A stretch of 64,000 bases of DNA. Source: Pristiophorus japonicus (taxonomy: Eukaryota). A program made the position numbers and the translations under genes. Positions 10,753-55,674 of the stretch are shown here, piece by piece; position 1 is the first letter of the stretch; every line of letters begins with the position of its first letter. The stretch spans positions 5,890,001-5,954,000 of the forward strand of contig NW_027252668.1 of assembly GCF_044704955.1 (NCBI RefSeq), written 5' to 3'. Under the pieces are notes generated by a model, which did no database searches, had not been told where the DNA came from, and was given only the letters and a program-made list of their open reading frames with translations.

Positions 10753-10928
10753 ACTAAACTAATCTCGAACATTTTCTGTCAGATATTAACTCCTGCGCGG
10801 TCCGAGCAACAATTCCCACTCCCTCGTCCCTCCGATGTTTTTGCAGGATTGCTTTGTGAAGACGGCTGAATGGGGAGAAATTACAACATGCTGTGGTGCA
10901 GAGGGACCTGGGGGTCCTTGTGCATGAA

Positions 10929-13876
10929 ACTCTTTTGGAGTTTACCTGTTAAACATAAACATTAATCGGTGCCACCCGACCTGGATGACACACCAGATAT
11001 TTACAAGGACCATTTTTTTCTTTTTTGTGTTTTTTTTTCTGTTTTTTTTTGGGCACTAAAATCCAATTTTTTTTTTCCACCAGTGCCCCCTATAAAAGGG
11101 GAGGGGGACACTAAAAGCACCGGCAATTAAAACAAATTAAACTTTAAAACGTAAAATCAAATTAAAATTTGGTTGCCGGGCGTGATGATGCACTCCAGTC
11201 CCTCCGGTGCCTACCTCTCGCGGAAGGCCGCGAGCATACTGGTGGACACCGCGTGCTCCATCTCCAAGGACACCCTGGACCGGATGTAAGAGCGGAAGAG
11301 TGGCAGGCAGTCAGGTTGAACGACCCCCTCGACCGCCCGCTGCCTGGACCGGCTGATGGCACCCATGGCCGTGCCCAGGAGCAGTCCTACGAGGAGGCCC
11401 TCGGACCTACCCGCTCCCCTCCGCACAGGGTGTCCAAAGATCAGGAGAGTGGGACTGAAGTGCAGCCAGAATTTCAGGAGCAGCCCCTTCAAATAATGGA
11501 ACAGGGGCTGCAACCTCGTGCACTCAATAAAAACATGGAACACGGACTCCTCCAGACCGCAGAAATTGCAGGCGGCCTGGGAGTCCGTGAACCGGCTTAA
11601 AAATTTGTTGCACGGCACTGCTCCGTGCACCACCCTCCAGGCCAAGTCCCCGATGAATAGTGGGAGGACCACTGCGTAGAGTGCCCTCCATTGGGGACCC
11701 CCGCCTCCTCCGGATGGCAAGATGGTACGCCATGGCGTGTCCGGACGGCCGGCGAGGATGGCAAAGTTGAGGGTGTGCAGGAGCAGCCCGTACAGGAAAC
11801 CCCTCCGCGCGGAACTGAAAGGCACGGAGGGGATTTCCCCGAGGCGGCTCAAGTTGTGAGGCGCCGGCCCCCGAGGGAGGTTCCGGGGTTTGGCGCCGAT
11901 GAGGAATTCCGTCCGGACGGGGGTCAGTTCGGACGGGATCTCCCCACGTGCTTGAGCCTCCTCGATGCACCTAACGGAGTCAGGGCCCAGAGCTGTTTTT
12001 AGCGACTCGATGGCATCGGCCGCGTGGCGGACGTTGGCAGAGTTTAGGCGCCGCGCCAGCGTGTCTGGCGCCATCCAGCCCGCTCCTCCGCCATCGAGCA
12101 GGTCCCTGACCCTGGTCACCTCACCAGCCACAGCCCTCTCTTCCGACCGCCACATGAAACCTCGGCCGTGGAGGTACGGATTCCCGAGCAGCGGCTCCTG
12201 CAGGACGGCCGCCACTCCAGCCGGCGGAGAGCTGCGCTTAGTGGAGACTTTGTTCCAGACCCTGATGAGTTCCCTGTAAAAGACAGGCAGCTCCTGGAGG
12301 GCGGTCCTGGCACCCCCCAAGTTCACAAACAGGAGCTGCGTGTCATAATTGAGGTCGCGCTGCTGGCGGAAGAAATACCTCGCCAGAGCACACCACCTAG
12401 GAGGGGGCTCGACGTAAAGGTATCTCTGCAGGGTCTGAAGACGGAATGTCGCGAGCTGGGCGCTGACGCACACCAACGACTGACCGCCCTCCTCAAGCTG
12501 GAGACTCAGGACCGCGGCAGAGACCCAGTGCTTCCTGTTGTTCCAGAAGAAGTCCACCAGCTTCTTCTGTATCTTGGCGACAAACGCAGGGGGAGGGGTC
12601 AAAGTGACCAGCTGGTACCACAACATTGCGGCCACCAGCTGGTTTATGACTAGCGCTCGACCCCTGTAGGACAGTACTCGGAGCAGTCCTGTCCAGCGCC
12701 CTAGGCGAGCGGCGACCTTGGCCTCCAGCTCCTGCCAGTTCGCCGGCCAGGCTCCCTCGTCGGGGCTAAGGTAGACTCCCAGATAGAGGAGATGGGTCGT
12801 GCTCCAGGCAAAAGGCCTGAGCTCCTCCGGCAGGGAGTCCACCTGCCACTGACCCACCAGGAGTCCGGAACATTTCTCCCAGTTGATCCTGGCGGAGGAC
12901 GCGGCCGAGTAAATCTCCAGGCACTCACGCAGCCTCCGCAGGTCAGCGGGATCCTCTACCGCGAGGAGCACATCATCGGCATAAGCCGACAGGACGACCT
13001 CCACGCCCGGCCCTTGCAGAGCCAGTCCCGTCAACCTCGTCCGCAAGAGGCGCAGGAAAGGCTCCACGCAAACGGCGTATAACTGGCCGGACATGGGGCA
13101 TCCCTGGCGCACCCCTCTCCCAAAGCCAAGGGGCGCCGTCAAGGACCCGTTAACCTTAATCAGACACTCCGCGGTGGTGTACAAAAGTCAGATCCGGGTG
13201 ACGAAATGCGTCCCGAACCCGAAAGCGCGCAGAGTTCCAAGCAGATAGTCGTGATCCACCCTGTCGAACGCCTTCTCTTGGTCGAGAGATAGGAAGGCGA
13301 CCGACAGACCAGCCTCCTGGGAATGATGGATGAGGTCCCGGACCAGATGGATGTTGTCGTGGATTGTCCGGCCCGGGACCGTGTAGGACTGGTCGGGTGG
13401 ATCATGTGGTCCAGCACGGCACCAAGGCGAGCAGACATCGCCCTGGCGAAGATTTTGTAGTCCGTGCTGAGGAGGGAGACCGGGCGCCAGTTCTTAAGGA
13501 GGCGGAGATCACCCTTCTTAGGCAGCAGGACAATGACTGTCCTGCGCCAAGAGAGGGGCATCTCCCCGGTCGCCAGACTTTCCCCCAGGACCCGCGCGTA
13601 GTCGCTCCCCAGGATGTCCCAGAACGCCCTGTGGAACTCCACGGTCAGCCCGTCCAGCCCCGGGGTTTTTCCCCTCGAGAGCCGGTCGAGGGCACCGGTC
13701 AGCTCCGCCAGGCTTAGCGGAGCTTCCAAATTTTCACCGCCCTCCGGGCTGACTTTCGGCAGGTCCTCCCACAAAACTCTACACGCTTCCTCGCTGGACG
13801 GATCCGGAGAGAACAGAGCCCCGTAATATTCACGGGCCCTGTTGTTGACGCCCTCCGGATCTGAAACGAGAGAGCC
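10929..13876 (-). mobile_element. Tx1-clade LINE copy A, 5'-truncated (RT plus C-terminal CCHC)
   Basis: QGCPMSG, YADD, CNFCGLEESVFHVFIEC; flanked by GTCCTTGTGCATGAA at 10914-10928 and 13877-13891; frameshift near 13395; late stop at 11211. Confidence 0.93.
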
Positions 13877-13891
13877 GTCCTTGTGCATGAA

Positions 13892-16855
13892 ACTCTTTTG
13901 AGTTTACCTGCAAAACATAAAAACATTAAACGGTGCCACCCGACCTGGGTGACACTCCAGACATTTACAAGGCCCTTTTTTTTCCCCCCCTTTTTTTGTT
14001 TTTTTTTTGTGTTTTTCTTTTTTGGTTTTTTTTTTTGGGCACTAAATTCACAATTTTCCCCAGTGCCCCCTATAAAAGGGAAGGGGGACACTAAAAGCAC
14101 CGGCAATTAAAACAAATTAACTTTAAAACGTAAAATCAAATTAAAATTTGGTTGCCGGGCGTGATGATGCACTCCAGTCCCTCCGGTGCCCACCTCTCGT
14201 GGAAGGCCGCGAGCGTACCGGTGGACACCGCGTGCTCCATCTCCAAGGACACCCTGGACCGGATGTAAGAGCGGAAGAGAGGCAGGCAGTCAGGTTGAAC
14301 GACCCCCTCGACCGCCCGCTGCCTGGACCGGCTGATGGCACCCTTGGCCGTGCCCAGGAGCAGTCCTACGAGGAGGCCTTCGGACCTACCCGCTCCCCTC
14401 CGCACAGGGTGCCCAAAGATCAGGAGAGTGGGACTGAAGTGCAGCCAGAATTTCAGGAGCAGCCCCTTCAAATAATGGAACAGGGGCTGCAACCTTGTGC
14501 ACTCAATAAAAACATGGAACACGGACTCCTCCAGACCGCAGAAATTGCAGGCGGCCTGGGAGTCCGTGAACCGGCTTAAAAATTTGTTGCACGGCACTGC
14601 TCCGTGCACCACCCTCCAGGCCAAGTCCCCGATGAATAGTGGGAGGACCCCTGCGTAGAGTGCCCTCCATCGGGGACCCCCGCCTCCTCCGGACGGCAAG
14701 ATGGTACGCCATGGCGTGTCTGGACGGCCGGCGAGGATGGCAAAGTTGAGGGTGTGCAGGAGCAGCCCGTACAGGAAACCCCTCCGCGCGGAACTGAAAG
14801 GCACGGAGGGGATTTCACCGAGGCGGCTCAAGTTGTGAGGCGCCGGCCCCCGAGGGAGGTTCCGGGGTTTGGCGCCGATGAGGAATTCCGTCCGGACGGG
14901 GGTCAGTTCGGACGGGATCTCCCCACGTGCCTGAGCCTCCTCGATGCACCTAACGGATTCAGGGCCCAGAGCTGTTTTTAGCGACTCGATGGCATCGGCC
15001 GCGTGGCGGACGTTGGCAGAGTTTAGGCGCCGCGCCAGCGTGTCTGGCGCCATCCAGCCCGCTCCTCCGCCATCGAGCAGGTCCCTGACCCTGGTCACCT
15101 CACCAGCCACAGCCCTCTCTTCCGACCGCCACATGAAGCCTCGGCCGTGGAGGTACGGATTCCCGAGCAGCAGCTCCTGCAGGACGGCCGCCACTCCAGC
15201 CGGCGGAGAGCTGCGCTTGGTGGAGACTTTGTTCCAGACCCTGATGAGTTCCCTGTAAAAGACAGGCAGCTCCCGGAGGGCAGTCCTGGCACCCCCCAAG
15301 TTCACAAACAGGAGCTGCGTGTCATAATTGAGGTCGAGCTGCTGGCGGAAGAAATACCTCGCCAGAGCGCACCACCTAGGAGGGGGCTCGACGTAAAGGT
15401 ATCTCTGCAGGGTCTGAAGACGGAAAGTCGCGAGCTGGGCACTGACGCACACCAACGACTGACCGCCCTCCTCAAGCGGGAGACTCAAGACCGCGGCAGA
15501 GACCCAGTGCTTCCTGTTGTTCCAGAAGAAGTCCACCAGCTTCTTCTGTATCTTGGCGACAAACGCAGGGGGAGGGGTCAAAGTGACCAGCCGGTACCAC
15601 AGCATTGCGGCCACCAGCTGGTTTATGACTAGCGCTCGACCCCTGTAGGACAGCACTCGGAGCAGTCCTGTCCAGCGCCCTAGGCGAGCGGCGACCTTGG
15701 CCTCCAGCTCCTGCCAGTTCGCCGGCCAGGCTCCCTCGTCGGGGCTAAGGTAGACTCCCAGATAGAGGAGATGGGTCGTGCTCCAGGCAAAAGGCCTGAG
15801 CTCCTCCGGCAGGGAGTCCACCCGCCACTGACCCACCAGGAGTCCGGAACATTTCTCCCAGTTGATCCTGGCGGAGGACGCGGCCGAGTAAATCTCCTGG
15901 CACTCACGCATCCTCCGCAGGTCAGCGGGATCCTCTATCGCGAGGAGCACGTCATCGGCGTAAGCCGAGAGGACGACCTCCACGCCCGGCCCTTGCAGAG
16001 CCAGTCCCGTCAACCTCGTCCGCAAGAGGCGCAGGAAAGACTCCACGCAAACGGCGTATAACTGGCCGGACATGGGGCATCCCTGGCGCACCCCTCTCCT
16101 AAAGCGAAGGGGCGCCGTCAAGGACCCGTTAACCTTAATCAGACACTCCGCGGTGGTGTACAAAAGTCAGATCCGGGTGACGAAATGCGTCCCGAACCCG
16201 AAAGCGCGCAGAGTTCCAAGCAGATAGTCGTGATCCACCCTGTCGAACGCCTTCTCTTGGTCGAGGGATAGGAAGGCGACCGACAGACCAGCCTCCTGGG
16301 AATGATGGATGAGGTCCCGGACCAGATGGATGTTGTCGTGGATTTTCCGGCCCGGGACCGTGTAGGACTGGTCGGGTGGATCATGTGGTCCAGCACGGCA
16401 CCAAGGCGAGCAGACATCGCCCTGGCGAAGATTTTGTAGTCCGTGCTGAGGAGGGAGACCGGGCGCCAGTTCTTAAGGAGGCGGAGATCACCCTTCTTAG
16501 GCAGCAGGACAATGACTGCCCTGCGCCAAGAGAGGGGCATCTCCCCGGTCGCCAGACTTTCCCCCAGGACCCGCGCGTAGTCGCTCCCCAGGATGTCCGA
16601 GAACGCCCTGTGGAACTCCACGGTCAGCCCGTCCAGCCCCGGGGTTTTTCCCCTCGAGAGCCGGTCGAGGGCACCGGTCAGCTCCGCCAGGCTTAGCGGA
16701 GCTTCCAAATTTTCACCGCCCTCCGGGCTGACTTTCGGCAGGTCCTCCCACAAAACTCTACACGCTTCCTCGCTGGACGGATCCGGAGAGAACAGAGCCC
16801 CGTAATATTCACGGGCCCTGTTGTTGACGCCCTCCGGATCTGAAACGAGAGAGCC
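13892..16855 (-). mobile_element. Tx1-clade LINE copy B, 5'-truncated
   Basis: Same truncation point and frameshift as copy A; flanked by GTCCTTGTGCATGAA at 13877-13891 and 16856-16870. Confidence 0.93.
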
Positions 16856-17739
16856 GTCCTTGTGCATGAATCCCAAAAAGTTAGTTTGCAGGTGCAGCAG
16901 GTAATAAGGAAGGCGAATGGAATGTTGGCCTTCATTGCAGGAAGGATGGAATACAAAAGCAGGGAGGTCCTGCTGCAACTGTATAGGGTATTGGTGAGGC
17001 CGCACCTGGAGTACTGCATGCAGTTTTGGTCACCTGACTAAAGGAAGGATATACTAGCCTTGGAGAGGGTACAGAGACGATTCACTAGGCTGATTCTGGA
17101 GATGAGGGGGTTACCTTATGATGATAGATTGAGTAGACTGGGTCTTTACTCATTGGAGTTCAGAAGGATGAGGGGTGATCTTATAGAAACATTTAAAATA
17201 ATGAAAGGGATAGACAAGATAGAGGCAGAGGGGTTGTTTCCACTGGTCGGGGAGACGAGAACTAGGGGGCACAGCCTCAAAATACGGGGGAGCCAATTTC
17301 AAGCCGAGTTGAGAAGGAATTTCTTCTCCCAGAGGGTTGTGAATCTGTGGCATTTTCTGCCCAAGGAAGCAGTTGAGACTAGCTCATTGAATGTATTCAA
17401 ATCACAGATAGATAGATTTTTAACCAATAAGGGAATTAAGGGTTACGGGGAGCGGGCGGGTAAGTGGAGCTGAGTCCACGGCCAGATCAGCCATGATCTT
17501 TTTGAATGGCGGAGCAGGCTCGAGGGGCGAGATGGCCCACTCATGTTCCTAATTCTTATGTTCTTATATTATGTAAACACCCTGCACAGAATTATCCCAA
17601 ATTGAGCATTTCCAAGGGACAAGGCTCCCAGCTTTAATCATTCTGTGTCCTTTCCCCCCAGGCCCAGTTCCTTTGTTCAGATTCTGATAAAAGTAAATTG
17701 GGAAAGGTGCACTTTGATTTTTACAGGCTGAATTATTGC

Positions 17740-18729: not shown

Positions 18730-20225
18730 CCCCACACTGGCAGGTACATTAAACACCCACACTCACTTGCCAGAAACTGGCAGGTAGAGAATAAAACTCC
18801 TATCGGAACAAATAACAAATAGATAGTATAAATCGTACTCTCATATCAGAAGCTGATGGGTACAGAGCAAAAGCCATATTCAAGTTTCAGAATCTGACGG
18901 ATTCAGTATTTAACCCCCAGAACATACCAGAAGATGACAGGTGCAGAATAAAACCCACATTCCTGTACCATAGACTGACAGATACAGTATACAACACACA
19001 CACACATACATGAAAGTGACAGTAACAGAATAAAATCCGCACTTGCACACCAGAGAGTGACAGGTAAAGTGTAAATCCCATGTGCACATATCCAAAAACT
19101 GAAAGGCAGTAAGTAAAATTGGTACTTGCATCGCAGAAACTGATAGGGGCAGAGTAAAACCCACACGCACACACCAGAAAAATGACAGGTAGAAGGCAAA
19201 ATCTTCACTCCCATATCAGAGAAATACAGGTAAAAAGTAAAATTGATCCTCACGTTCACATACCAGATACAGAGTAAATTCCACACTCTCACAGCAGAAA
19301 CTGACAGGTACAGACTAAAACACACAATCAAGTAGCAGGAACAAATAGGTACAGATTAAACCCAGACCAACATAGCAGAAACTTAGAGGCACAGATTAAA
19401 CCTCAACACACATACCAAAACCTGACGGGTACAGAATAATACACACACTCGCACATCAGAGACTGAGGATACAGTATAAAACCCACACTCACATATCACA
19501 GGCTGAGATATATTATAAAACCCACACTCACATATCAGAGGCTGACATATTAAAATCCACATTCCCATAACATAAATTGACGAGACACAGTGAAATGTCA
19601 TACTCACTTATCAGTACTTGACAGGAACAGAGTAAAGACATCTCTTCCATACCAGAAACTGACAGGTACAAAGAAAAGCCCACTCTCAATTAAGCAGAAA
19701 CTGGCAGGGAAAGAGTAAGGCCCACAATCACATATCAGAACTTGACAGGTACAGAATAAAACACAGACTCCCATAACAGAAATGGAGAGATACAGAGAAA
19801 GGCCCACACTCACATACCAGAGACAGATAGATACAGAGTGAAAATCAGACTCATTTACCAGAGACTGACAGATTCAGCATAAACACTCACCTCCATAACA
19901 AAAATTGACAGGGTATTCGTTTTACTTTCTATCAGGAATTGGTGGTACACAGTAAAACAATACTAACATACTGGAGAATGACAGGTATGAAGTAGAACTC
20001 ACATTCACATAACAGAGATGGACAGATCGAGCACAAAACACACACACATACACCAGGAATGGAAAGATACAGAATGAAACCCACAGGCAATTACCAGAAA
20101 TTGATAGGTACAGGATAAAACCCACACTCTCGTATTAGAAACTGACACACACAGTAAAACCCTCATCCACATACCAGAGATGGGCAGATACAGAGCCAAT
20201 CCACATTCATATACCAGACACCCAC
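18730..20225. repeat. Degenerate ~42-bp satellite
   Basis: Same motif family as 1-1075. Confidence 0.8.
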
Positions 20226-20227
20226 AA

Positions 20228-21662
20228 TATAAGAAAATAAGAACATAAAAAATAGGAGCAGGAGTAGGCCATACGGCCCCTCAAGCCTGCTCCGCCATTT
20301 AATACGATCATGACTGATCCGATCATGGACTCAGGTCCAATTCCATGCCTGCTCCCCATAACCTCTTATTCCCTTATCGGTTAATAAACTGTCTATCTCG
20401 ATCTTAAACATATTCAATATCCCAGCTTCCATAGCTCTCTGAGGCAGCGAATTCCACAGATTTACAACCCTCAGAGAAGAAATTCCTCCTCATCTCAGTT
20501 TTAAATGGGTATCCCCTTATTCTAAGATTATGCCTCCTAGTTCTAGTCCCCCCTATCAGTGAAAACATTCTCTCTGCATCCACCTTGTCAAGTCCCCTCA
20601 TAATCTTATACATTTCGATAAATCACCTCTCATTCATTCTTCTGAATTCCAATGAGTAGACGTCCAACCTCTTCTCATAAGTCAATCCCTTCATCTCCGG
20701 AATCAACCTAATGAACCTTCTCTGAACTGCCTCCAAAGCAACTATATCCTTTCATAAATATGGAAACCAAAACTGCACGCAGTATTCCAGGTGTGGCCTC
20801 ACCAATAACCTGTAACCTGTATAACTGTAGCAAGACTTCCCTGCTTTTATACTCCAGCCCCTTTGCAATAAAGGTCAAGATTCCATTGGCCTTCCTGATC
20901 ACTTGCTTTACCTGCATACTAACCTTTTGTGTTTCATGCACAAGTACCCCCAGGTCCCGCTGTACTGCAGCACTTTGCAATCTTTCTCCATTTAAATAAT
21001 AACTTGCTCTTTGATTTTTTTTCTGCCAAAGTGCATGACCTCACACTTTCCAACATTATACTCCATCTGTCAAATTTTTGCCCACTCACTGAGCCTAACT
21101 GTGTCCTTTTGCATATTCTTTGTGTCCTCCTCACACGTTGCTTTTCCTCACATCTTTGTATCATCAGCAAACTTGGCTACGTTACACTCGGTCCCTTCTT
21201 CCAAGTCGTTAATATAGATTGTAAATAGTTGGGGTCCCAGCACTGATCCCTGTGGCACCGCACTAGTTACTGATTGCCAACCCGAGAATGAACCATTTAT
21301 CCCGACTCTCTGTTTTCTGTTAGTTAGCCAATCCTCAATCCATGCTAATATATTACCCCCAACCCCGTGAACTTTTATCTTGTGCAGTAACCTTTTATGT
21401 GGCACCTTGTCAAATACCTTCTGGATGTCCAATTACACCACATCCACTTTATCCACCCTGTTCATTACATGCTCAAAGAATTCCAGAAAATTTGTCAAAC
21501 TTAATTTCCCCTTCATTAATCCTTGCTGACTCTGCCTGACCGAATTTTGCTTTTCCAAATGTCCTGCTACTGCTTCTTTAATAATGGACTCCCAACATTT
21601 TCCCAACAACAGATGTAAGGCTAATTGGTCGACAGTTTCCTGCTTTTTGTCTGCCTGTTTTT
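20228..21662 (-). mobile_element. CR1 LINE 3' fragment
   Basis: RT fragments ([16 protein letters not shown]) and CR1 tail; unoccupied Tx1-target homologue TTCATGCACAAGTA near 20933. Confidence 0.9.
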
Positions 21663-21670
21663 TCACCGAG

Positions 21671-21780
21671 TGCGGCTCTCAGGCCCCAGGTAACACCCAG
21701 TGCAGCTCTCAGGCCCCGGGTAACACCCAGTGCAGCTCTCAGACCCCGGGTAACACTGAGTGCAGCTCTCAGGCCCCGAG
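21671..21780 (+). repeat. 30-bp tandem repeat, ~4 units
   Basis: TGCAGCTCTCAGGCCCCGGGTAACACCCAG repeated. Confidence 0.85.
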
Positions 21781-22350
21781 TCAGAGCCGCCAAGCCTGGC
21801 ACCAGCAAACCCCGGGGGCAGTGCCACCCGCACACCACTTGCATTTATGCAGCAGGCCCAGCAATTCCCAGTTGCTCTATCAGGGAGGGCGCTGGATGTG
21901 GAAGTCTCTCCCTGACCTCCTGTGTGGGTCTGTTTGTTGCATCAGTTTGAGCTGGAGTGGGGAGGAGGGAGAAGCTGCTGGGTTTCACCCCCAGTACTTC
22001 TGGGCCCAGTGGGACCAACAATTTCCCATGTGGGACTGTCACGGGAGGTGGGTTCCCTTCCGTGAAGGACAATCATGACCCAGATGTGTTTTTATGACAA
22101 TCCGGCAGCTTTCATTGTCACTTTTTTCTAGTGCTGGCCCCACAAATGACCAGATTCATCAAGCTCAATTTCATAACCTGCCTTTGTGTTTTTGTGGGTT
22201 CTCTCTCACACTCCCTTTTTCCTGTTTGAAATTCACTTTATAGGGTATTAAAAGGGGAGGATTTGTAGACTGGAAGCTCAAACCAAACATCACTTCAAGA
22301 TCTGACAGTCAGTCGATACATCGGGACCGGAATATCATCAGCTTTTGACC

Positions 22351-30450: not shown

Positions 30451-30509
30451 GAGCACAGAAACCGAGGTTAGATTACTGTCATCATCAGGTCCCGGGGAAT
30501 GTGCTGACC

Positions 30510-35135: not shown

Positions 35136-35507
35136 CAGTCTAAGCAAGAGACAGTAAATTCCGCAGTTTTGTCAAGAACTCTGGCGATTTGTGTGATGCT
35201 CCAGTGGGCTTGCCGGGGAAATGACAAACTCCAACAAGAATACTCGATCCTGAACTTTCAGTTTTATTAAGCGTCAGAAAAGTATACATTACATTCCACT
35301 TCACACTGTCAATATTTGTCTCATTTTCTGCCCTGCCATTATTAGATCTTCTGGTGAATGATGGAGTGATTGAGAAAGTTTCACAGGAGGAAGGAAACAG
35401 GGACTGTAGACTGAGAAACAATGGCCGGTGAACCAGCAGAGGATTGTGAGAGCACCAACCAGAGATAACCCTTCTGATTCAAAGAGCTTCCATAGATCGA
35501 CAGGGGC

Positions 35508-35989: not shown

Positions 35990-38157
35990 TGCAGTAGAGG
36001 TTGTATACATGGACTTTCAAAAGCCATTTGATAAAGTATCACATAATGGACTTGTTTGTAAATTGAAGCACATGGTGTTAAAGGGACAGTGGTAAATTGG
36101 ATATGTAATTAGCTGAGGGACAGGGGGCAGAGAGCAGTGGTGGACCGATGTTTCTCCAACTGCGGAGAAGTTTACATTGGGTCAACCAGGTGTCGCAATT
36201 GATGCCTTTGCTTTTCTGGTTATATTTTAAATGACCTGGTCTTCGCTATCGGGAGTGGACCTTCGAGGTTTGCTGAGGGCAAGAAAGTTGATTGTAGTAA
36301 ATGGTGAGCAGGATCGCAGCAGACTTTAGAAAGGCACAGACAGACTGGTGAACTGGACTGAAACATGGCAGATGCAATTTATTATTGCTCAGTGTGAAAT
36401 TATACACTTTGGGAAGTTCAACATGGAGAAGCAGTATAATGCAGACAGTACTATTTTGAGGGGATGTAAGAGCAGAGACCTGGGGGTAAATATCCACAAA
36501 TGTTTGAAGATGGAAGGGTAAGCTGATAAGACATTTAAGAGAGTGTATGGCATCTTTCACTTTGTAAATGGAGCACTAAACATAAAAACAAGGAGTTCAA
36601 TGCTAACCCATTACAAATCAGTGGTGAGGCTGGAGTATTGTGTACAATTCTGAGCAACACACATTAGGAAGAATGCCAAGGTGTTGGAGAGGGTACAGAG
36701 GACGTTTACCAGGATGATACCTGAGACTTCAATTATGTGGTGAGATTAGTCATGCTTGACCAATCTTCCAGAATTTTTTGAGGATGTAACTAATAGAGTG
36801 GATAAGGGAGAACCAGTGGATGTGGTGTATTTCGAATTTCAAAAGGCTTTTGACAAGGTCCTTCACAAGAGATGTGCAAAATTAAAGCACATGGTATTGG
36901 GGGTAATGTATTGACATGGATAGAGAACTGGTTGGCAGACAGGAAGCAAAGAGTAGGAACAAACGGGTTATTTTCAGAATGGCAGGCAGTGACTGGTGGG
37001 GTGCTGGAAGGTGCCATGCGGCTGTGGGGGTCGGGGTTTGTGGAAGGGGCGTGGCGGGGAGGTGCTGGGGTGGCTGATCAGCCATGATCTTGTTGAATGG
37101 TGGTGCAGGCTTGAAGGGCCGAATGGCCTACTTCCGCACCTATTTTCTATGTTTCTATGTTTCTATGCTGGGACCCCAGCTATTTACAATGTACATTCAT
37201 GATTTAGACAAAGGAATTGAATGTAATATCCCTACATTTGCAGATGACACTAAGCTGGGTGGCAGTGTGAGCTGTGAGGAGGAAGCTAAGAGGCTGCAGG
37301 GTGACTTGGACAGGTTTGGTGAGTGGGCAAATGCATGGCAGATGCAGTATAATGTGGATAAATGTGACGTTATCCACTTTGGTGGCAAAAACAGGAAGGC
37401 AGAATATTACCTGAATGGTGACAGATTAGGAAAAGGGGAGGTGCAACGAGACCTGGGTGTCATGGTACATCAGTCATTGAAGGTTGGCATGCAGGTACAG
37501 CAGGCGGTTAAGAAAGCAAATGGCATGTTGGCCTTCATAGCGAGGGGATTTGTGTACAGGGGCAGGGAAGTGTTGCTACAGTTGTACAGGGCCTTGGTGA
37601 GGCCACACCTGGAGTATTGTGTACAGTTTTGTTCTCCTAACTTGAGGAAGGACATTCTTGCTATTGAGGGAGTGCAGCGAAGGTTCACCAGACTGATTCC
37701 CGGGATGGCGGGACTGACCTATCAAGAAAGACTGGATCAACTGGGCTTGTATTCACTGGAGTTCAGAAGAATGAGAGGGGACCTCATAGAAACGTTTAAC
37801 ATTCTGATGGGTTTAGACAGGTTAGATGCAGGAAGAATGTTCCCAATGTTGGGGAAGTCCAGAACCAGGGGTCACAGTCTAAGGATAACGGGTAAGCCAT
37901 TTAGGACTGAGATGAGGAGAAACTTCTTCACCCAGAGAGTGGTGAACCTGTGGAATTCTCTACCACAGAAAGTTGTTGAGGCCAATTCACTAAATATATT
38001 CAAAAAGGAGTTAGATGAAGTCCTTACTACTAGGGGGATCAAGGGGTATGGCGAGAAAGCAGGAATGGGGTACTGAAGTTGCATGTTCAGCCAACATGGC
38101 GGTGCAGGCTCGAAGGGCTGAATGGCCTACTCCTGCACCGATTTTCTATGTTTCTAT
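35990..38157 (+). mobile_element. Stack of CR1 fragments (old copy ~35990-36750; younger pieces 36750-37000, 37065-37166, 37167-38157)
   Basis: Repeated RT motifs and two TTTCTATG tails. Confidence 0.85.
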
Positions 38158-39061
38158 ACCAATGACTGACAGGGACAGAGATAGATATATACTTCCAGAC
38201 CAGACACTGACGAGCACAGAGATAGATACATACTTCTATACCGGTCACTGACAGGCACACAGATAGATACATACTCCCAGACCAGAAAGTGACAGCACAG
38301 ATAGATGCAAACTCCCGTACCAGGGACTGACAGGCACACAGATAGATGCATACTTCCAGACCAATACATAAGAATTAGGAACAGGAGTAGGCCATCTAGC
38401 CCCTTGAGCATGCTCCGCCAATCAATAAGATCATGGCTGATCTGGCCGTGGACTCAGCTCCACTTACACGCCCGCTCCCTGTAACCCTTAATTCCCTTAT
38501 CGGTTAAAAATCTATCTATCTGTGACTTGAATACATTCAATGAGCTAGCCTCAACTGCTTCCTTGGGCAGAGAATTCCACAGATTCACAACCCTCTGGGA
38601 GAAGAAATTCCTTCTCAACTCGGTTTTAAATTGGATCCCCCGTATTTTGAGGCTGTGCCCCCAAGTTCTAGTCTCCCCGACCAGTGGAAACAACCTCTCC
38701 GCCTCTATCTTGTCTATCCCTTTCATTATTTTAAATGTTTCTATAAGATCACCCCTCATCCTTCTGAACTCCAACGAGTAAAGACCCAGTCTACTCAACC
38801 CATCATCATAAAGTAACCCCCTCATCTCCGGAATCAGCCTAGTGAATCGTCTCTGTACCCGCTCCAAAGCCAGTATATCCTTCCTTAAGTAAGGGGACCA
38901 AAACAGCACGCAGTACTCCAGGTGCGGCCTTACCAATACCTTATACAGTTGCAGCAGGACCTCCCTGCTTTTGTACTCCATCCCTCTTGCAATGAAGGCC
39001 AGCATTCCATTCGCCTTCCTGATTACCTGCAAACTAACTTTTTGGGATTCATGCACAAGGA

Positions 39062-39393
39062 TCCGCGCGTACATCCGCGCCAGGGTATCCTTGGAGATGG
39101 AGCACGCGGTGTCCACCGGTACGCTCGCGGCCTTCCGCGAGAGGTGGGCACCGGAGGGACTGGAGTGCATCGTCACGCCCGGCAACCAAATTTTAATTTG
39201 ATTTTATGTTTTTTAAGTTAATTTGTTTTAATTGCCGGTGCTTTTAGTGTCCCCCTCCCCTTTTATAGGGGGCACTTGGAAAAAAAAAAAAATTTGATTC
39301 TGTGCCCAAAAAAAAAATGGCATTGTAAATGTTGGTGTTTCCCCCAGATTGGGGGGCACGGTTTAATGTTTTCCTGTTAACTCCTAAAAGAGT
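39062..39393 (+). mobile_element. Tx1-clade LINE copy C, short 3' fragment
   Basis: RAYIRARVSLEMEH...GNQILI* plus 3' UTR; flanked by TTCATGCACAAGGA at 39048-39061 and 39394-39407. Confidence 0.93.
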
Positions 39394-39407
39394 TTCATGC
39401 ACAAGGA

Positions 39408-39777
39408 TCCACGCATACATCCGTGCCAGGGTGTCCTTGGAGATGGGCACGCAGTGTCCACCGGTACGCTCGCGGCCTTCCGCGAGAGGTGGGTACCGGA
39501 GGGACTGGAGTGCATCATCACGCCCGGCAATCAAATTTTAATTTGATTTTATGTTTTAAAGTTTAATTTGTTTTTATTGCCGGTGTTTTTTAGTGTCACC
39601 CTCCCCTTTTATAGGGGGCACTTGGAGGAAAAATAAGATTTTAGTGCCCAAAAAAATAATTTAAAAAAAATACACACACACAAGAAAAGGGCCTTGGAAA
39701 TGTTTGGTGCGCCCCCCCAGATCGGGGGGGCACCATTTTATGATTTAATGTTTTTTTTGTTTGCTCCCAAAAAGAGT
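39408..39777 (+). mobile_element. Tx1-clade LINE copy D, short 3' fragment
   Basis: Same 5' junction as copy C with a different 3' UTR variant; followed by TTCATGCACAAGGACC at 39778-39793. Confidence 0.93.
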
Positions 39778-40712
39778 TTCATGCACAAGGACCAATGGTG
39801 GAGCTTTGGAGGCGTGGCCTAATCAGTTAGAGCTGTGAGCAGTGGGAGAAGGAGCTGCTGCTTTTGCTCCTGTCTGGGACGCCTGGAGTGAGCCCTGAGA
39901 ACAGCCCAGGAATAGGAGGGAAGGGCTGGCTTACTGCAGTTCAACATCCGGAGCGAGAGGAGAGCAGAAAAATTAACCAACTTTATTTACTTCTACAAAG
40001 AGTTGGAGAGAGTGGGAAAAGAGCAACAACCTGTGTGGAAGGAGGGAGATTCTACAACATTCTACAGGTGGGTGTTGGTGCATTCCCCGAAAGACATTGT
40101 TGTATCGGTGGGGGGAGGAAAGAAGACTTTTCGAGGGCCGGAACATCGCGGGAGGTGTGTGTGTGCGGAAGTGTGTGTGGGGGTCTTGCTTACAGCTAGG
40201 CCCCACACACCACTAAAGCACCCCTCCCCCATTGCCTAGCCTGGGATAGCTGGAGCTACCTGGCTGAAAACTATTAATTACCCTATTAAACATCATTGGG
40301 AGTGTGTGCCTGGGTGGCTCCAGCTACCCCAGGTGAAGACATCTTCTCCCCCCACCCGAAGACCTTTCTTAAAAGAATGTGTTTTTTTTTTGGATCTGGG
40401 GAGTGCACCCCAAGAAACACCCACCCATTGCTGTGAGGGGAGACCTGCCCTCGCAGCCTCCCTCTTTCCCACACCCCCTCACTCGATCTCTCTCTGTCTC
40501 TCCCCTCTCTCTCTGAGAGCCCTTTCCTCCTAATTTAAAAAAAAAACAATTAAGACAACTGAGCAGAGGGAGCAAGGCCCCTCCCCATTCGTTCACCAGG
40601 GGAGAGGTGTGCCCCATTAAGAGCTCCCTCTGCTCAAAAAACCAACGAGGCCAATAAAGACCATTAAGGCCTGTGACTTTGGGGTGGGTGTAGCCCTTAA
40701 AGGGACCCCGTG

Positions 40713-42813
40713 ATGGCGACCCCATCCACGCCGGTGGCAGGGCCAGCAAGGACATATGCGCAGGCGGCATCCACATCCATGGCGCCTCCTGCGCCACCTG
40801 CTGCCCTGCCACCATTCAGACTGATGACAAAGAAACACGGGGTCAAGAGCTACACTCAACCCACAATGAGCATTGAGGTGTGCATGCGGGCGATGGCCGG
40901 GGTAGTCGGCCCCTCGGCCATTGTTGCAGCCTCCAAGATGTCAGGGAAGGCTGTGTTCTTCCTGGGGTCGGAGCGGGCGGTGTCCCTGGCCCTTGAAAAG
41001 GGGCTCATGGTGGGCGGGACGTTCCTGCCGGTGGACCCTGTCGAGGCCACCGCGCAGAGGGTCATCATTTCAAACGTCCCGCCCTTTGTTCCCGCTGAGC
41101 TCCTTCTCCCTCACCTACACCAACTGGGGGAGGTAAGGTCGGGGATCTACCCCATACCGCTCGGCCTCAGGGAGAGCAGCCTGCGCCATGTGTTCTCCTT
41201 CCGCCGCCAGCTCTTTGTCCGGCTGGCACGGGAGGAGACGACGGAGGGCAATTTCAATGTGGTGCACGAGGGGACTGCCTACCGCGACTTCTGGACGTCG
41301 GAAGGCGTGCGGTGCCATGCCTGTAGGGAGGTGGGGCACGTTTGCAAGAACTGACCCGCCTCCAAGGCCGCCAAACCACCGAAGGCGGCTAAGGCTGGCG
41401 CCGCCGCCACCCCTCCCCCTAGTAGCGTCCGCGTGCCGCGTGCCGTGAGCCGTAGGTGCGCGGGCATCGTCGGGGGCCTTTGTTTTCACGGCCTCTGGCG
41501 GGGGGGAGGGTGAGCGTCCGATCGGAAAGAAGGTGCGGAGGAATGCGAAACATCTCGAGGCGGGTCCCCTCAGTGCGCCAGAAAGTTTGACCACCGCGCT
41601 CAGCCCAACCCAGTCATCGGCGAGCGCGGGGTGCCCTGAGCCCGTGCCCGAGCCCTTGACCAATACCGCAGAGGGGCTCGGGCGCGGGCAAGATAAGAAA
41701 AAGGGGGGGGCGGAGCGGGAGGCCTCGGCAGACACGGGGGTCTCCCTGCCTCCGCGCACCCCCAGGAACAAAAGGAGGCGCCACTCCAATGAGGCGGAGG
41801 GGGAACAACATCCTTCCGCGGAGGAGTCGGTGCCTGCCGCTTGTCCCGTGTCCCCCACCGGCGCCCCCAAACCACGCCGTAGGCGCGAGGAATCTGTCCC
41901 CGGGGAGGGTGAGGCAGTCGAGGCTGCCCAGCCGCTGCCTCCCGGGGATGGCATGAAAGATCTGCCTGGCGTGGGGGGCGTGGGGCCAGCGGAGGAATGC
42001 GTTGCTGCCGGGTCGAGCATCCCGGGGACTGAGGCGGACGGAGCCGAAAAGGTCGTACCTGAGACCGTCCGGCTATTATCCAACTTCCCCCGGGTGTCGT
42101 TGGGCCCAGAAGAAACGGCAATGAATGATTTTAACGAGTCTGTACACGCTGGGCCGGGGGGTGGCGGCGGGGTGGGGGAAGAACAACAACCCTCGCCCCC
42201 TACTTTGGAGCTGCGGTACTTGGTGGACCTGGAACATTACTTTGACTAGGTCTCTCCGTGTTCCCCGGTTACTGGGGCGGAGGAGGAACACCTTCCGCTG
42301 TCGCTTCCCGATCCAGCACCAAATTTAAAAGAGCCCAGTGGGGACTCCTCTGCCGATGATCCTGGGGGTGCGATCGGGGCGGAGCCAGGGCCAGATGGAG
42401 CGGCCGGGCCGTTTGCCGTACCTCATGCGGTCGACGGGCCGGCTGCTAGCGGCGACCTCCCGGAGGAGGACGGGGACTCGGTGGAGGACGCGGGTGAAGA
42501 TCTCGAGTCCATCGCCAGTGAGGCGGTGGATCTCCTCGTGCCCGCCGCTGAGTCCCCCCTCATTCCCGTAGAGGAACTCCGGGACTTTTTGGTCCAGAGC
42601 CAGGGTCGCCGCAACCGAACCCATCTGGCCCGGGAAAGATGGTCCTAGCCGGGGCTGCTCATCGCTTCCGTCCGCGTCACCGCTAAAACCATGGCCGCGG
42701 GCGGGCCCTTATCAAAGGCGCAAGGCCTTGAGCTGCGCTGGCTCAAAAAGTTCCTCGCTGGGCTGCTGAAGGAGTGGAGGTCAACAAACGACTCCACTCC
42801 CCCCCCACAATAG
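40713..42813 (+). pseudogene. Tx1 ORF1 (Gag-like nucleic-acid-binding protein with CCHC knuckle), disrupted
   Basis: VIISNVPPFV motif; CHACREVGHVCKN with the last Cys changed to TGA at 41352; further stops in the low-complexity C-half; end coordinate approximate. Confidence 0.75.
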
Positions 42814-42843
42814 GTTAGGTAGAGGTTGCACTATGCTCTTGTC

Positions 42844-45800
42844 ATGAAGATAACCATAGCCAGCCTCAACATCAACGGCGGCAGAGAGGCACGCCGTAGA
42901 TTTAACAATTTTTCGCTCCTGTGGGAGGGGAAATATGCGGTATGCTTCCTGCAAGAAACCCACACCGTTCCGGGAGACGAAGCCACGTGGCTCCTGGAAT
43001 GGCAAGTAGAGGTCCGCATGAGCCACCTCACCGCCACTTCTAGTGGGGTGGCCATCTTGCTGGCCTCGCATTTTCAGCCGGAGATCTTGGGGGTCGAGGA
43101 GCCCGTGCCAGGCCGCTTTCTGCACGTAACGGTTCACCTGGGGGACATGCCGCTCCATCTCGTGAACGTATACGCCCCTCAGCCCGGCCCGCAGCAAATG
43201 CGCTTCTTCGAAGAGGTGTCCGCTCTTCTTGGCTCCGTCGACGTCGGCCTCGGGGGGGATTTTAACTGCACCCTCGAGGCGAGGGACCGCTCCGGTTCCC
43301 CGCAGAGCATGACGGCGATGGGGAAGTTGAGAGACCTGGTCGGGTCCTTCGAGTTGGTGGACGTCTGGCGAAATCTCCATCCCGACTCCAGCGCCTTTAC
43401 TTGGGTGAGGCCTGGAGTAGGATGGTCCAGAGTCGACCGCCTTTACGTGTCTCGGGCGTACGTTTCCTGCGTCCCGACGGCCTCCTTGCGGCCGATGCCG
43501 TGTTCGGACCACCACCTGGTGTGGGCGGAACTCGCTTCGCTCCGCGGGAGGACGGGGTCCGCGTACTGGCATTTTAACAACCGGCTGCTGGAGGACGTGC
43601 GGTTCCAGGATTCGTTCCGTCGATTCTGGGCCGACTGGAGAAGGAAGCAGGGGGGCTTCCCCTCCTTGAGGCTATGGTGGGACGTGGGGAAGGCTCACGT
43701 CCGCGTCTTCTGTCAAGAGTACGCGAGGGGGTCAACCAAGAGGCGGGCGGCCAGGGTCGGGCGCCTAGAAAAAGAGGTGCTCGACCTGGAGTCCCGTCTC
43801 GGTCAAGTCGTCGGGGACCCGGCCCTGCGGATGGTGTACGAAGTGAAGAAGGCCGCGCTGAAGGACCTGCAGCTCGTCGGGTCCCGAGGCGCGTTCGTGA
43901 GGTCGCGGATCCGGTTCCTGCGGGATCTGGACCGCGGCTCCCCCTTCTTCTACTCGCTGGAAATAAAACAGAGTGTCCGTAAGCAGCTCTTGACGCTGCT
44001 GGCCGACGACGGCTCTCTCGTCTCGGATCCGGAGGGCGTCAACAAAAGGGCCCGTGAATATTACGGGGCCCTGTTCTCTCCGGAGCTGTCCAGCGAGGAA
44101 GCGCGTAGAGTTTTGTGGGAGGACTTGCCGAAGGTCAGCCCGGAGGGCACCGAAAATCTGGAAGCTCCGCTAAGCCTGGCGGAGCTGACCGGCGACCTCG
44201 ACCGGCTCTCGAGGGGAAAAGCCCCGGGGCTGGACGGGCTGACCGTGGAGATCCACAGGGCGTTCTGGGACATCCTGGGGGGCGACTACGCGCGAATCCT
44301 GGGGGAAAGTCTGGCGACCGGGCAGATGCCCCTCTCTTGGCGCAGGGCAGTCATCGTCCTGCTGCCTAAGAAGGGCGATCTCCGCCTCCTTAAGAACTGG
44401 CACCCGGGCTCACTCCTCAGCATGGACTACAAAATCTTCGCCAGGGCGATGTCTGCTCGCCTTGGTGCCGTGCTGGACCACATGATCCACCCCGACCAGT
44501 CCTACACGGTCCCGGGCCGGACAATCCACGATAACATCCATCTGGTCCGGGACCTCATCCATTATTCCCAGGAGGCTGGTCTGTCGGTCGCCTTCCTATC
44601 CCTCGACCAAGCGAAGGCGTTCGACAGGGTGGATCACGACTATCTGCTCTGAACTCTGCGCGCTTTCGGGTTCGGGACGCATTTCGTCGCCCGGATCCGA
44701 CTATTGTACGCCGCCGCGGAGTGTCTGATTAAGGTTAACGGGTCCTTGACGGCGCCCCTTCGCTTTGGGAGAGGGATGCGCCAGGGATGCCCCATGTCCA
44801 GCCAGTTATATGCCGTCTGCGTGGAGCCTTTCCTGCGCCTCCTGCGGACGAGGTTGACGGGACTGGCTCTGCAAGGGCCGGGCGTGGAGGTCGTCCTCTC
44901 GGCTTACGCCGATGACGTGCTCCTCGCGGTAGAGAATCCCGCTGACCTGCGGAGGATGCGTGAGTGCCAGGAGGTTTACTCGGCCGCATCCTCCGCCAGA
45001 ATCAACTGGGAAAAATGTTCCGGACTCCTGATGGGTTGGTGGCGGGTGGACTCCCTGCCGGAGGAGCTCAGGCCTTTTGCTTGCAGCACGACCCATCTCC
45101 TCTATCTGGGAGTCGACCTTAGCCCCGACGAGGAAGTCTGGCCGGCGAACTGGCAGGAGCTGGAGGCCAAGGTCACCGCTCGCCTAGGGCGCTGGACAGG
45201 ACTGCTCCGAGTGCTGTCCTACAGGGGTCGAGCGCTAGTCATAAACCAGCTGGTGGTCCCCATGTTGTGGTACCGGCTGGTCACTTTGACCCCTCCCCCT
45301 GCGTTTGTCGCCAAGATACAGAAGAAGCTGGTGGACTTCTTCTGGAACAACAGGAAGCACTGGGTCTCTGGGGCGGTGTTGAAGCTCCCGCTTGGGGAGG
45401 GCGGTCAATCGTTGGTGTGCGTCAGCGCCCAACTCGCGACTTTCCATCTTCAGACCCTGCAGAGATACCTTTACATCGAGCCCCCTCCTAGGTGGCGTGC
45501 TCTGGCGACGTATTTCTTCCGCCAGCAGCACGGCCTCAACTACGACACGCAGCTCCTGTTTGTGAGTGTGGGGGGCGTCAGGACCGCCCTCCGGGAGCTG
45601 CCTGTCTTTTACAAGGAACTCATCAGGGTCTGGAACAAAGTCTCCACCAAGCGCAGCTCTCCACCGGCTGGAGTGGCGGCCGTCTTGCAGGAGCCGCTGC
45701 TCGGGAATCCGTACCTCCACGACCAAGGTTTTAGGTGGCGGTTGGACGAGAGGGCTGTGGCTGGTGAGGTGACCAGGGTCACGGACCTGCTCGATGGTGG

Positions 45801-46731
45801 AGGAGCGGGCTGGATGGCGCCAGACACGCTGGCGCGGTGCCTAAATTCTGCCAACGTCCGTCACGCGGCCGATGCCATCGAGTCGCTAAAAAGAGCTCTG
45901 GGCCCCGACTCCATTAGGTGCATCGAGGAGGCTCAAGCACGTGGGGAGATCCCATCCGAACTGACCCACGTCCGGACGGAATTCCTCATCGGCGCCAAAC
46001 CCCGGAACCTCCCTCTGGGGCCAGCGCCTCACAACTTGAGCCGCCTCGGGGAAATCCCCTCCGTGCCTTTCATTTCCGCGCGGAGGGGTTTCCTGTACGG
46101 GCTGCTCCTGCACACTCTGAAATTTGCCATCCTTGCCTGCCGTCCGGACACGCCATGGCGTACCATCTTGCCGTCCGGAGGAGGCGGGGGTCCCCGATGG
46201 AGGGCACTCTACACGGGAGTCCTCCCAGTATTTATCAGGGACTTGGCCTGGAGGGTGGTGCACGGAGCAGTCCCGTGCAATAAATTTTTAAGCCGGTTCA
46301 CGGGCTCCCAGGCCGCCTGCAATTTCTGCGGTCTGGAAGAGTCCATGTTCCATGTTTTTATGGAATGCACGAGGTTGCAGCCCCTGTTTGATTATTTAAA
46401 GGGGCTGCTCCTGAAATTCTGGCTGCACTTCAGTCCCACACTCCTGATCTTTGGACACCCTGTGCAGAGGGGAGCGGGTAGGTCCGAGGGCCTCCTTGTA
46501 GGACTGCTCCTGCGCACGGCCAAGGGTGCCATCAGCCGGTCCAGGCAGCGGGCGGTCGAGGGGGTCGTTCTACCTGACTGCCTGCCTCCCTTCCGCGCGT
46601 ACATCCACGCCAGGGTGTCCTTGGAGATGGAGCACGCGGTGTCCACCGGTACGCTCGCGGCCTTCCGCGAGAGGTGGGCACCGGAGGGACTGGAGTGCAT
46701 CGTCATGCCCGGCAACCAAATTTTAAATTGA
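42844..46731 (+). pseudogene. Tx1 ORF2 (APE endonuclease, RT, CCHC) with a single in-frame stop
   Basis: SLNING, LQETH, GGDFN, SDH (APE); QGCP, YADD (RT); ORFs 42826 and 44704 share a frame and are separated only by TGA at 44650-44652 (GGA in copies A/B). Confidence 0.93.
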
Positions 46732-47509
46732 TTTTATGTTTTAAAGTTTAATTTGTTTTAATTGCTGGTGTTTTTTAGTGTCCCCCTCCCCTTTTATAGG
46801 GGGCACTTAGGAAAAATATTATTTAAGTGCCAAAAAAAAAAAAAAAATGGGCGTTGTAAATGTTTGGTGCATCCCCCAGATCGGGGGGCCACGGTTTAAT
46901 GTTTTTGTTTGCTCCAAAAGAGTTTCATGCACATGGAACCCCAGGTCCCTCTGCATCTCAGCATGTTGTAATTTCTCCCCATTCGAATAATATTCCCTTT
47001 TACTGTTTTTTTCCCCAAGGTGGATGACCTCACACTTTCCGACATTGTATTTCATCTGCCAAACCTTAGCCCATTCGCTTAACCTATCTAAATCTCTTTA
47101 CAGCCAATCTGTGTCCTCTCCACAACCCGCTTTCCCACTAATCTTTGTGTCATCTGCAAATTTTGTTGCACAACACTCTGTCCCCTCTTCCAGGTCATCT
47201 ATGTATATTGTAAACAGTTGTGGTCCCAGCACCGATGCCTGTGGCACACCATTAACCACCGATTTCCAACCCGAAAAGGACCCATTTATCCCGACTCTCT
47301 GCTTTCTGTTCGCCAGACAATTCTCTATCCATGCTAATACATTTCCTCTGACTCCGCGTACCTCTATCTTCTGCAGTAACCTTTTGTGTGGCACCTTATC
47401 AAATGCCTTTTGGAAATCTAAATACACCACATCCATCGGTACACCTCTATCCACCATGCTCGTTATTTCCTCAAAGAATTCCAGTAAATTAGAAAATTCC
47501 AGAAAAAAC

Positions 47510-55597: not shown

Positions 55598-55674
55598 TAT
55601 GGCAGGGGGATGGGAACCAATGCAGGGAGATAGAGGGAAACAAAAAGGAGGCAAAAACAAAAGACAGAAAGGAG

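Follow-up and report, generated by a model that had tools for sequence, protein, structure and literature searches.

Among the known systems nearest to the element analysed here is Tx1L of Xenopus laevis, a LINE with an APE-RT ORF2 that inserts at a single site of a transposon, the DNA transposon Tx1D (sections of PMC4494074 and PMC1950540). Crocodilian Tx1 families also prefer transposons, namely Mariner-N4_AMi (Tx1-Mar), LTR retrotransposons (Tx1-8_Crp and Tx1-4_AMi) and Harbinger (Tx1-9_AMi), and there too related families have different targets (PMC4494074). Compared by description, the parts of that study considered here name no CR1 or other LINE among the targets; its supplements may list more. 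Keno, Kibi and Koshi likewise show sequence-specific Tx1-clade insertion into multicopy DNA, with U2 snRNA genes or microsatellites as targets (sections of PMC4494074). R1Bm and SART1Bm, site-specific APE-type LINEs of another clade (R1) with other targets, are proposed to be assisted at priming by annealing of RNA to the target; the sections of PMC7265360 on this process describe the annealing as an aid to accuracy and not as setting the target.

Here we analysed a 64,000-nucleotide stretch of the genome of the shark Pristiophorus japonicus (the window; positions 5,890,001 to 5,954,000 of contig NW_027252668.1). In contrast to Tx1L, the Tx1 element found here targets the coding region of a LINE with tens of thousands of dispersed copies, and the genome holds three sister targets. 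Unlike U2 snRNA genes or microsatellites, its target is a mobile element with family turnover. A LINE coding region is thereby added to the described Tx1 targets; the literature searched (subscription papers, Repbase Reports and Dfam were outside its scope) held no CR1-targeting Tx1. The system bears on how APE-type LINEs gain and change target specificity. Subfamilies are labelled Tx1 A (including A1 and A2), B and C, and hosts CR1-A, CR1-B and CR1-D. Tx1 A targets a site in CR1-B (the A site), Tx1 B the homologous site in CR1-D (the B site) and Tx1 C an LTR-like repeat, the last resembling the LTR preference of the crocodilian Tx1-8_Crp and Tx1-4_AMi.

A full-length Tx1-clade element

The window contains one full-length element of subfamily A1 (39793..46923, plus strand), which has no poly(A) tail, a 3' terminus reading ...AAAAGAGT and a 5' head similar to the targets of the sister subfamilies. 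Tx1-clade elements carry a zinc knuckle in ORF1 and a C-terminal zinc motif in ORF2. The ORF1 region (40701..42830, plus strand, end coordinate approximate) is frameshifted; a Cys/His zinc-knuckle-like motif was read from the sequence at about 41320-41350, and the first 217-aa piece had no Pfam match. ORF2 (42844..46731, plus strand) encodes an N-terminal APE endonuclease and an RT (PF03372 and PF00078, both above the Pfam cut-off), followed by a zf-RVT-like C-terminus that scored 26.7 bits against a cut-off of 27.5. Its defects are one stop (44650-44652) and a 12-bp deletion within the endonuclease. The first 602 aa were 50% identical to the Xenopus TX1 149 kDa protein (E 2.7e-184; 44% over the endonuclease), with weaker matches to the human L1 endonuclease (~1e-18) and to CR1 ORF2 (~24%). 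The endonuclease could be aligned to L1 endonuclease structures, and its hairpin loop is three residues shorter than that of Tx1L. On these similarities ORF2 resembles Tx1L more than it does L1 or CR1, and its APE-RT make-up would place the element in the Tx1 clade. Seven full-length A2 copies were sampled and three had both ORFs open, suggesting recent activity of Tx1 A.

Two independent loci with insertions at one CR1 nucleotide

The first-pass annotation had described five antisense Tx1 copies at one nucleotide of a CR1 ORF2, and we found all of them, on the minus strand at locus A and on the plus strand at locus B. Locus A holds two 5'-truncated copies, one of subfamily A2 (13892..16855) and one with another 3' end variant (10929..13876), which are 98.4% identical across the coding part and both start at element position 4216. 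They are accompanied by 14-bp target-site duplications on the outer 3' side (10915..10928), between the copies (13878..13891) and on the outer 5' side (16857..16870), all read on the minus strand. The host on the plus strand consists of a short 5' remnant of CR1-B terminating in RDLGVLVHE (10868..10928) and a 3' part (16856..17570). At locus B, two 5'-truncated copies (39062..39393 and 39408..39777, the latter with another 3' end variant) share a start at element position 6800 and precede the full-length copy. Here the 14-bp duplications lie on the plus strand at 39048..39061 (outer 5'), 39394..39407 (inner), 39778..39791 (before the full-length copy) and 46924..46937 (outer 3', one mismatch), and the minus-strand host comprises a 5'-truncated 5' part (46924..47490) and a 3' part (38366..39061). 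The tandem truncated copies thus have one common truncation point per locus, and at both loci the two sides of the host frame read ...RDLGVLVHE and ...HESQKV, in the direction opposite to Tx1.

The two loci are independent, as had been proposed, because their CR1 3' parts have diverged (92.9% identity across 705 bp) and their Tx1 3' end types differ. The 3' end of locus B with its flank occurs three more times on its own contig; the collinear flanks mark these occurrences as segmental duplicates that go back to a single event. The duplication, put at 14-16 bp before, is 14 bp long, and cases of 15-16 bp arise from microhomology; 17 outer 5' junctions were mapped, and at 13 the element begins at base 15. 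A sixth Tx1 copy (61133..62299, plus strand) lies outside CR1 with its own 10-bp duplication, an empty paralog at 6661 and six segmental duplicates.

Genome-wide census of the target site

A loose definition collected 7,775 Tx1 3' ends, against 10 for a reversed-pattern control, and 4,173 of the 7,775 were followed by the exact target 10-mer (54%, all end types). For the youngest subfamily, A2, 3,779 of 5,275 ends adjoined the exact CR1 site (72%). As target-type sites make up ~2.7e-6 of positions, the target within CR1 was strongly enriched at A2 3' flanks, ~2.6e5 over chance, an enrichment of the kind that the first-pass annotation had named as support for its claim. A Tx1 family has been regarded as target-specific when more than 20% of its flanks are one repeat type (a section of PMC4494074), and both 72% and 54% exceed this value. 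On inspection, 28/30 and 29/30 loci lay at the site in two partly overlapping sets, and a contiguous sample of 100 contained 81 A-type ends, 70 on site and 11 (~14%) off-target. Position, orientation and target-site duplication were all fixed for Tx1 A insertions. Exact sites were filled in 5,555 cases versus 18,419 empty; the occupancy of intact sites is roughly 18-23%, about a fifth.

The 17 outer junctions had 14 distinct starts, in agreement with the earlier statement that the insertions are not one duplicated composite. Collectively, the data strongly support a sequence-specific Tx1 whose main target is one antisense site in a CR1 ORF2, as opposed to a duplicated composite. At off-target A insertions only 1-4 bases matched the target and all but a few started with T; among the off-target sites inspected, none started TTCATG with a non-CR1 continuation.

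Only certain CR1 families are hit

CR1-A, the young CR1 of greatest abundance, has the homologous site in 105,135 exact copies; this site is 5.7-fold commoner and had no Tx1 junctions. An untargeted CR1-A ORF2 is open in the window (55573..58581, plus strand), with a homologous site that has no T at the putative nick. The intact CR1 copy of the window has the CR1-clade traits of an APE-RT ORF2, an esterase ORF1 and a short 3' tandem repeat; relative to it the targeted families show ~70% DNA identity (CR1-B) and ~50-60% protein identity (CR1-D). The proposal that an abundant LINE serves as a safe harbour was borne out for one CR1 family and a sibling sharing the downstream sequence, and not for CR1 generally. 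The further proposal that insertion disables the host LINE is weak, because both window hosts were already 5'-truncated, ~60 bp and ~550 bp upstream of the site.

Flanks of CR1-B were 95% alike pairwise and those of CR1-D 87%. Sites that share the downstream sequence but read GTGT upstream accounted for 12 junctions in the first 100 listed of 1,578 filled ones, against an availability of ~27%, the two patterns differing in length; 7 of the 12 may be mutated empty sites. By this comparison of patterns of unequal length, the upstream half-site would affect insertion about 2-4-fold.

Sister subfamilies with exclusive targets

The sister subfamilies are 93-96% identical, each with another target, the homologous site of CR1-D (B) or the LTR-like repeat (C). 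The C target, represented by one complete example, is ~270 bp long with TGTAA...TTACA ends and AATAAA, and no duplication was seen. We found no A2 ends at the B site, against ~830 expected without discrimination (4,034 empty B sites), and 0/497 B ends at the A site. The latter avoidance may be a matter of timing, because CR1-B and Tx1-B are of similar age (95% and 94-95% pairwise). A and B targets differ on the primer side only; the half-site 3' of the nick is common to both.

In a tree rooted with frog and turtle proteins, C was basal, A and B grouped with support of 97 and A was nested in B (93); this was a quick search in which the branches separating A from B were short and the joining of the frog outgroup to a long branch was flagged. 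A close copy of the C target is present in the 5' heads of A and B, and one B-site copy, internally deleted, has a C-like head. The rooted tree, this relic of the C target and the greater age of CR1-D flanks relative to those of CR1-B point to a target order from the LTR-like repeat (C) through the older CR1-D (B) to the newer CR1-B (A).

Only one or two fixed endonuclease differences accompany each target switch. Residue 192, located in the hairpin loop, is R in 5/5 C and V in 18/18 A/B copies; in L1 this loop reaches into the minor groove 3' of the nick (a section of PMC8565326). Residue 67, two places from the equivalent of L1 Lys70, which contacts positions -4 to -6, is S in 8/9 A copies and C in 8/9 B and 5/5 C copies, with the exception that one B copy, L166, has S67 yet occupies the B site. 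One or two fixed substitutions are a thin basis for fully exclusive targets, and grafting of the loop gave no modular transfer of specificity (part of PMC1950540). With three subfamilies whose endonucleases are 93-96% identical, exclusive targets, thousands of insertions and open-ORF copies, a few residues and the two RNA flanks are within reach of direct tests.

Growth of tandem arrays

Adjacent truncated pairs had a common start in 45/69 cases, compared with 31/1,740 cross-locus comparisons, in an array sample enriched through the way loci were picked. In 13/16 same-start pairs one member resembled a copy from a different locus more than it did its neighbour, so simple tandem duplication was rejected as the way in which same-start arrays generally arise; 1/16 looked like a plain duplication and 2/16 were ambiguous. 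Template jumping was also rejected as a general source, because spacers of off-target arrays were mostly the local duplication, except in L181, where a canonical A-type spacer lies within an array at a non-CR1 site. Block duplications occurred within one array (L158), and difference profiles were mixed as to whether long stretches of the resident are copied into a newcomer. The arrays would best be explained by new insertions that take over the truncation point of the adjacent copy.

Proposed mechanism and alternatives

We propose, with a probability of roughly 0.6, that an autonomous, target-specific Tx1 uses target-primed reverse transcription, guided mainly by protein and helped by target-derived RNA ends. 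ORF2p would nick the bottom strand between GGGA and TTCATG (Tx1 orientation), and reverse transcription would begin precisely at the 3' terminus of the tail-less RNA, probably through short pairing with read-through target. The top strand would then be cut 14 nt downstream; the sequences themselves show the 14-bp duplication and that the 3' junction is exact. Duplication would rebuild the target and permit another insertion, so that arrays form. New copies would enter mostly upstream of the resident, and annealing of the new cDNA to the resident's first bases would pass on its truncation point, the pattern of which is seen in the copies themselves. The lineage would have moved from the LTR-like repeat (C) to an older CR1 (B) and on to the corresponding site in a younger CR1 (A), one transposon tracking the turnover of another. 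The protein would be the main chooser of the site, with target-derived RNA ends assisting at both junctions. Against a protein-led choice, the matches of 1-4 bases at off-target sites, none with TTCATG and a non-CR1 continuation, suggest that recognition extends past the ~9-bp footprint of an L1-type endonuclease.

A less probable but tenable alternative is that the endonuclease is loose, asking for purine-rich sequence upstream and T at the nick, and that specificity comes mostly from source-locus sequence carried on the RNA. The 3' read-through would pair with the nicked primer strand and the 5' leader with the top-strand overhang, and a copy landing in a new repeat would retarget its descendants without protein change. 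The endonucleases of A and B are 95.5% identical in DNA, much as B copies are among themselves (95.2%), yet their targets are exclusive and differ on the primer side only; both switches are nevertheless accompanied by fixed endonuclease changes. The missing poly(A), the exact 3' junction and the loose off-target sites, nearly all starting with T, fit RNA pairing at priming, which has been proposed for SART1Bm and R1Bm (a section of PMC7265360), and the spacer of L181 could be explained by read-through RNA. The upstream half-site, which 3' read-through could not read, matters about 2-4-fold, and the isolated Tx1L endonuclease nicks its own target almost exclusively (part of PMC1950540). At the 5' side, every inspected full-length B copy has the same apparent duplication of 9 bp rather than ~14, and an extra A is present in 62 of the first 100 listed of 405 outer B junctions, the empty sites being 1 with it versus 4,034. 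In contrast, 100 listed of 425 full-length A outer junctions had no extra base and showed variable heads after the 14-mer, and 7/17 truncated outer junctions had no microhomology. A non-exhaustive search found no daughter family from an off-target source copy. It is likewise less probable, though tenable, that the lineage was retargeted largely by its own RNA, with target sequence from the source locus at both transcript ends deciding the landing. The corresponding history, in which a nearly unchanged enzyme went from LTR-like repeat to CR1 to the next CR1 with old targets stacked at the 5' end, is equally tentative. If RNA flanks do steer insertion, a flank swap could redirect this natural LINE to another landing site, and the element would be a lead for site-specific gene insertion.

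It is very improbable that a Tx1-in-CR1 unit was multiplied from one or a few origins, whether through segmental duplication or as an antisense passenger of CR1. The three segmental duplicates of locus B, the six of the sixth copy and the blocks in L158 are of this kind, but it is the 5' end of Tx1 itself that is truncated, the 17 junctions fall at 14 different points, and a new 14-bp duplication goes with each of them; host flanks of filled and empty sites are equally diverged (95.3-95.4%), and copies are spread across many chromosomes. Composite spread is therefore refuted as a general cause and accounts for local paralogs only. Equally remote is loose insertion shaped by CR1 abundance and purifying selection against other insertions, which could draw on the ~14% of A-type ends off-target and on the 22-34% share of CR1-group elements in elasmobranch genomes (a section of PMC13343379) and was rejected in view of the single nucleotide, the single orientation, the unoccupied though 5.7-fold commoner CR1-A site and the ~2.6e5 enrichment.

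No relatives were found in metagenome contigs. Four contig sets from two coded organisms cover both elements; one X4 contig spans the 3' junction and one X2 contig has a C-type spacer.

Tx1 insertion at a single CR1 site

The first-pass annotation had described five Tx1 copies at two loci, all antisense within a CR1 ORF2 between the ...VHE and SQKV codons. This was borne out for locus A (13892-16855 and 10929-13876, minus strand) and locus B (39062-39393, 39408-39777 and the full-length copy 39793-46923, plus strand), where the host CR1s had been 5′-truncated before Tx1 arrived. Position, orientation and the exact, tail-less 3′ end were observed directly, as was a target duplication of 14 bp; the longer values in the 14–16 bp originally given reflect microhomology overlap. 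Nick positions and annealing steps were inferred. Of the 29 outer 5′ junctions found, 17 were mapped, and in 13 of these the element started at base 15.

The proposed census of 3′ flanks revealed strong site enrichment across the 5.92-Gb assembly. A loose 3′-end pattern, which gave 10 matches in the control versus 7,775, was followed directly by the exact target 10-mer at 4,173 of 7,775 ends. For A2, the youngest end type, this was true of 3,779/5,275 ends, and in another 164 A2 ends the next base was T and the one after it was not. When the first 100 3′ ends on contig C1 were all assigned, 64 lay at the site exactly and 6 near-exactly; the remainder were A-type off-target (11), type B (4), type C (8) or other (7). 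Filled outer 3′ junctions numbered 5,555, compared with 18,419 sites that were exact and empty. A further 8,174 empty sites lay in a sibling CR1 family whose upstream 4-mer differs, which puts occupancy at ~18–23%. The homologous site of CR1-A, the dominant young family, had zero Tx1 junctions genome-wide in 105,135 copies, and lacks the T present at nearly all insertion points. It is near certain that the element is site-specific. A duplicated composite was ruled out, as first claimed, by 14 distinct starts among 17 junctions and by host flanks equally diverged (95%) at filled and empty sites.

The full-length copy encodes an APE-RT ORF2 with 50% identity to Xenopus Tx1 ORF2 over 602 aa, carrying a single stop and a 12-bp deletion; its ORF1 is broken and a poly(A) tail is absent. 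The most identical named match to a Tx1 ORF2 piece was a stingray protein (62%, half of the query). The 3′ side of locus B has three segmental duplicates on the same contig. Since Tx1 families targeting DNA transposons and LTR elements are already described (PMC4494074), the element was, by the tests run, grouped with target-specific Tx1 elements, which it resembles in operation. No Tx1 aimed at CR1 or another LINE was found in the text of the papers searched. The original observation is judged real, and the documented target switching is of greater interest than the CR1 target alone.

Subfamilies and target switching

Target choice tracks subfamily. In addition to the subfamily A site in CR1-B, 477 Tx1 ends adjoin the homologous codon position (RDLGVLVHR/SLK) of the older family CR1-D, the subfamily B target, and 458 adjoin a site ~37 bp inside an LTR-like repeat of ~270 bp, the subfamily C target (seen at loci L141, L146 and L150). 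The exclusivity was directly observed: A2 ends at the CR1-D site numbered 0 versus ~830 expected, and B-type ends at the A site 0/497. Most subfamily B copies are full length, and they often stand in 7.1-kb head-to-tail arrays (L066, L090, L160-L166, L205-L207), whereas most A copies are truncated. In two pairs of off-target A2 insertions at separate loci (L193/L194 and L197/L200) the downstream flanks resemble each other, a hint of minor secondary target repeats.

A tree rooted with frog and turtle proteins, excluding one partial C copy, placed C basally, joined A to B (97) and nested A inside B (93), with short branches. A near-copy of the C target lies inside A and B heads, B heads open with 9 nt of the CR1-D target, and one deleted copy joins a 12-nt CR1-D duplication to a C-like head. 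Within-family likeness is 87% for CR1-D and 95% for CR1-B. Together, the tree, heads, deleted copy and CR1 family ages make the inferred order LTR-like repeat, CR1-D, CR1-B well supported.

Determinants of specificity

We favour, at a probability of roughly 0.6, a mixed model in which the protein leads target choice. Twenty-three long copies (9 A, 9 B, 5 C), picked non-randomly from arrays and lists, showed fixed endonuclease differences at residue 192 in the hairpin loop (R in C versus V in A and B) and residue 67 (C in B and C versus S in A), and three additional changes were confined to A2. By alignment to L1 and the L1–DNA structure (PMC8565326), the hairpin loop would read the half-site common to A and B and absent in C, and residues 65-67 would be close to the Lys70 equivalent, on the side that differs between the A and B targets; the fixed changes sit at predicted DNA-facing positions. 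An upstream half-site effect of 2–4-fold, blunt 5′ junctions in 7/17 truncated copies and the precedent of the target-specific Tx1L enzyme (PMC1950540) also argue for the protein. More tentatively, target inheritance may be led by the RNA, as suggested by near-identical subfamily enzymes (DNA identity in the same copies 95.5% for A-B and 93.5% for A-C), loose off-target sites without intermediate matches, read-through, and B duplications that are invariantly 9 bp with an extra A in 62/100 outer junctions among the matches listed; A heads, however, lack such an extra base.

Array formation

Inherited truncation was directly observed. In a sample favouring arrays, with some overlapping locus records, 45/69 adjacent truncated pairs shared a 5′ start versus 31/1,740 cross-locus comparisons, and same-start pairs occurred in 26/36 records. 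Duplication as their general origin was mostly ruled out by differing 3′ variants in neighbours and by 13/16 pairs in which one member was nearer to a copy elsewhere. A new copy would insert upstream of the resident, and its cDNA would pair with the top strand on the downstream side. This fits the L187-L190 array, which expanded inside a resident Tx1 and is spaced by sequence of the element itself; it also fits the extra A, which is confined to outer B junctions and never found at inner ones. Off-target sites were reused many times, so resident homology or the element 3′ end may attract or complete insertions. Two pairs of unlinked loci shared a 5′ start (L021/L022 and L047/L095) and L181 has a canonical spacer within an off-target array, which fits read-through RNA; the pairs may be truncated units that were mobilised anew from transcripts reading through an array. 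Sites L180/L181, L187-L190, L158 and L077, which include off-target sites and one inside Tx1 itself, each hold 5 to >16 short copies with mixed 3′ variants.

Other features of the window

Two linker histone H1 genes (7497-8069 and 62703-63407, minus strand) lie within duplicated blocks, 5675-8030 matching 60115-63265. A sixth Tx1 copy (61133-62299), outside CR1 and with an empty paralog at 6661, tells the blocks apart; six matches to it were found in the genome, each of them on the window's own contig, and it dates six paralogs there. A C2H2 zinc-finger array of 84-bp repeats (22306-23700) is open for 464 aa. An apparently complete young CR1 (54065-58682), with a GDSL-esterase ORF1, an open ORF2, a 5′ tandem repeat with TATAAAA and an 8-bp 3′ repeat, belongs to the family in which the homologous site occurs at least 105,135 times. 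A truncated CR1 (30894-34388) has a 33/40-bp satellite block on either side (30513-30896 and 34386-35139), which suggests that it inserted into satellite. Two repeats are present twice (1075-2781 with 52314-54061; 2785-4117 with 58680-60007), and a Pfam search of their tested ORF pieces gave no match. Many CR1 fragments and satellites are also present, as are related 40-41-bp and 62-64-bp minisatellite arrays (2-1073, 18809-20247, 38148-38363, 47503-49697 and 50569-51157).
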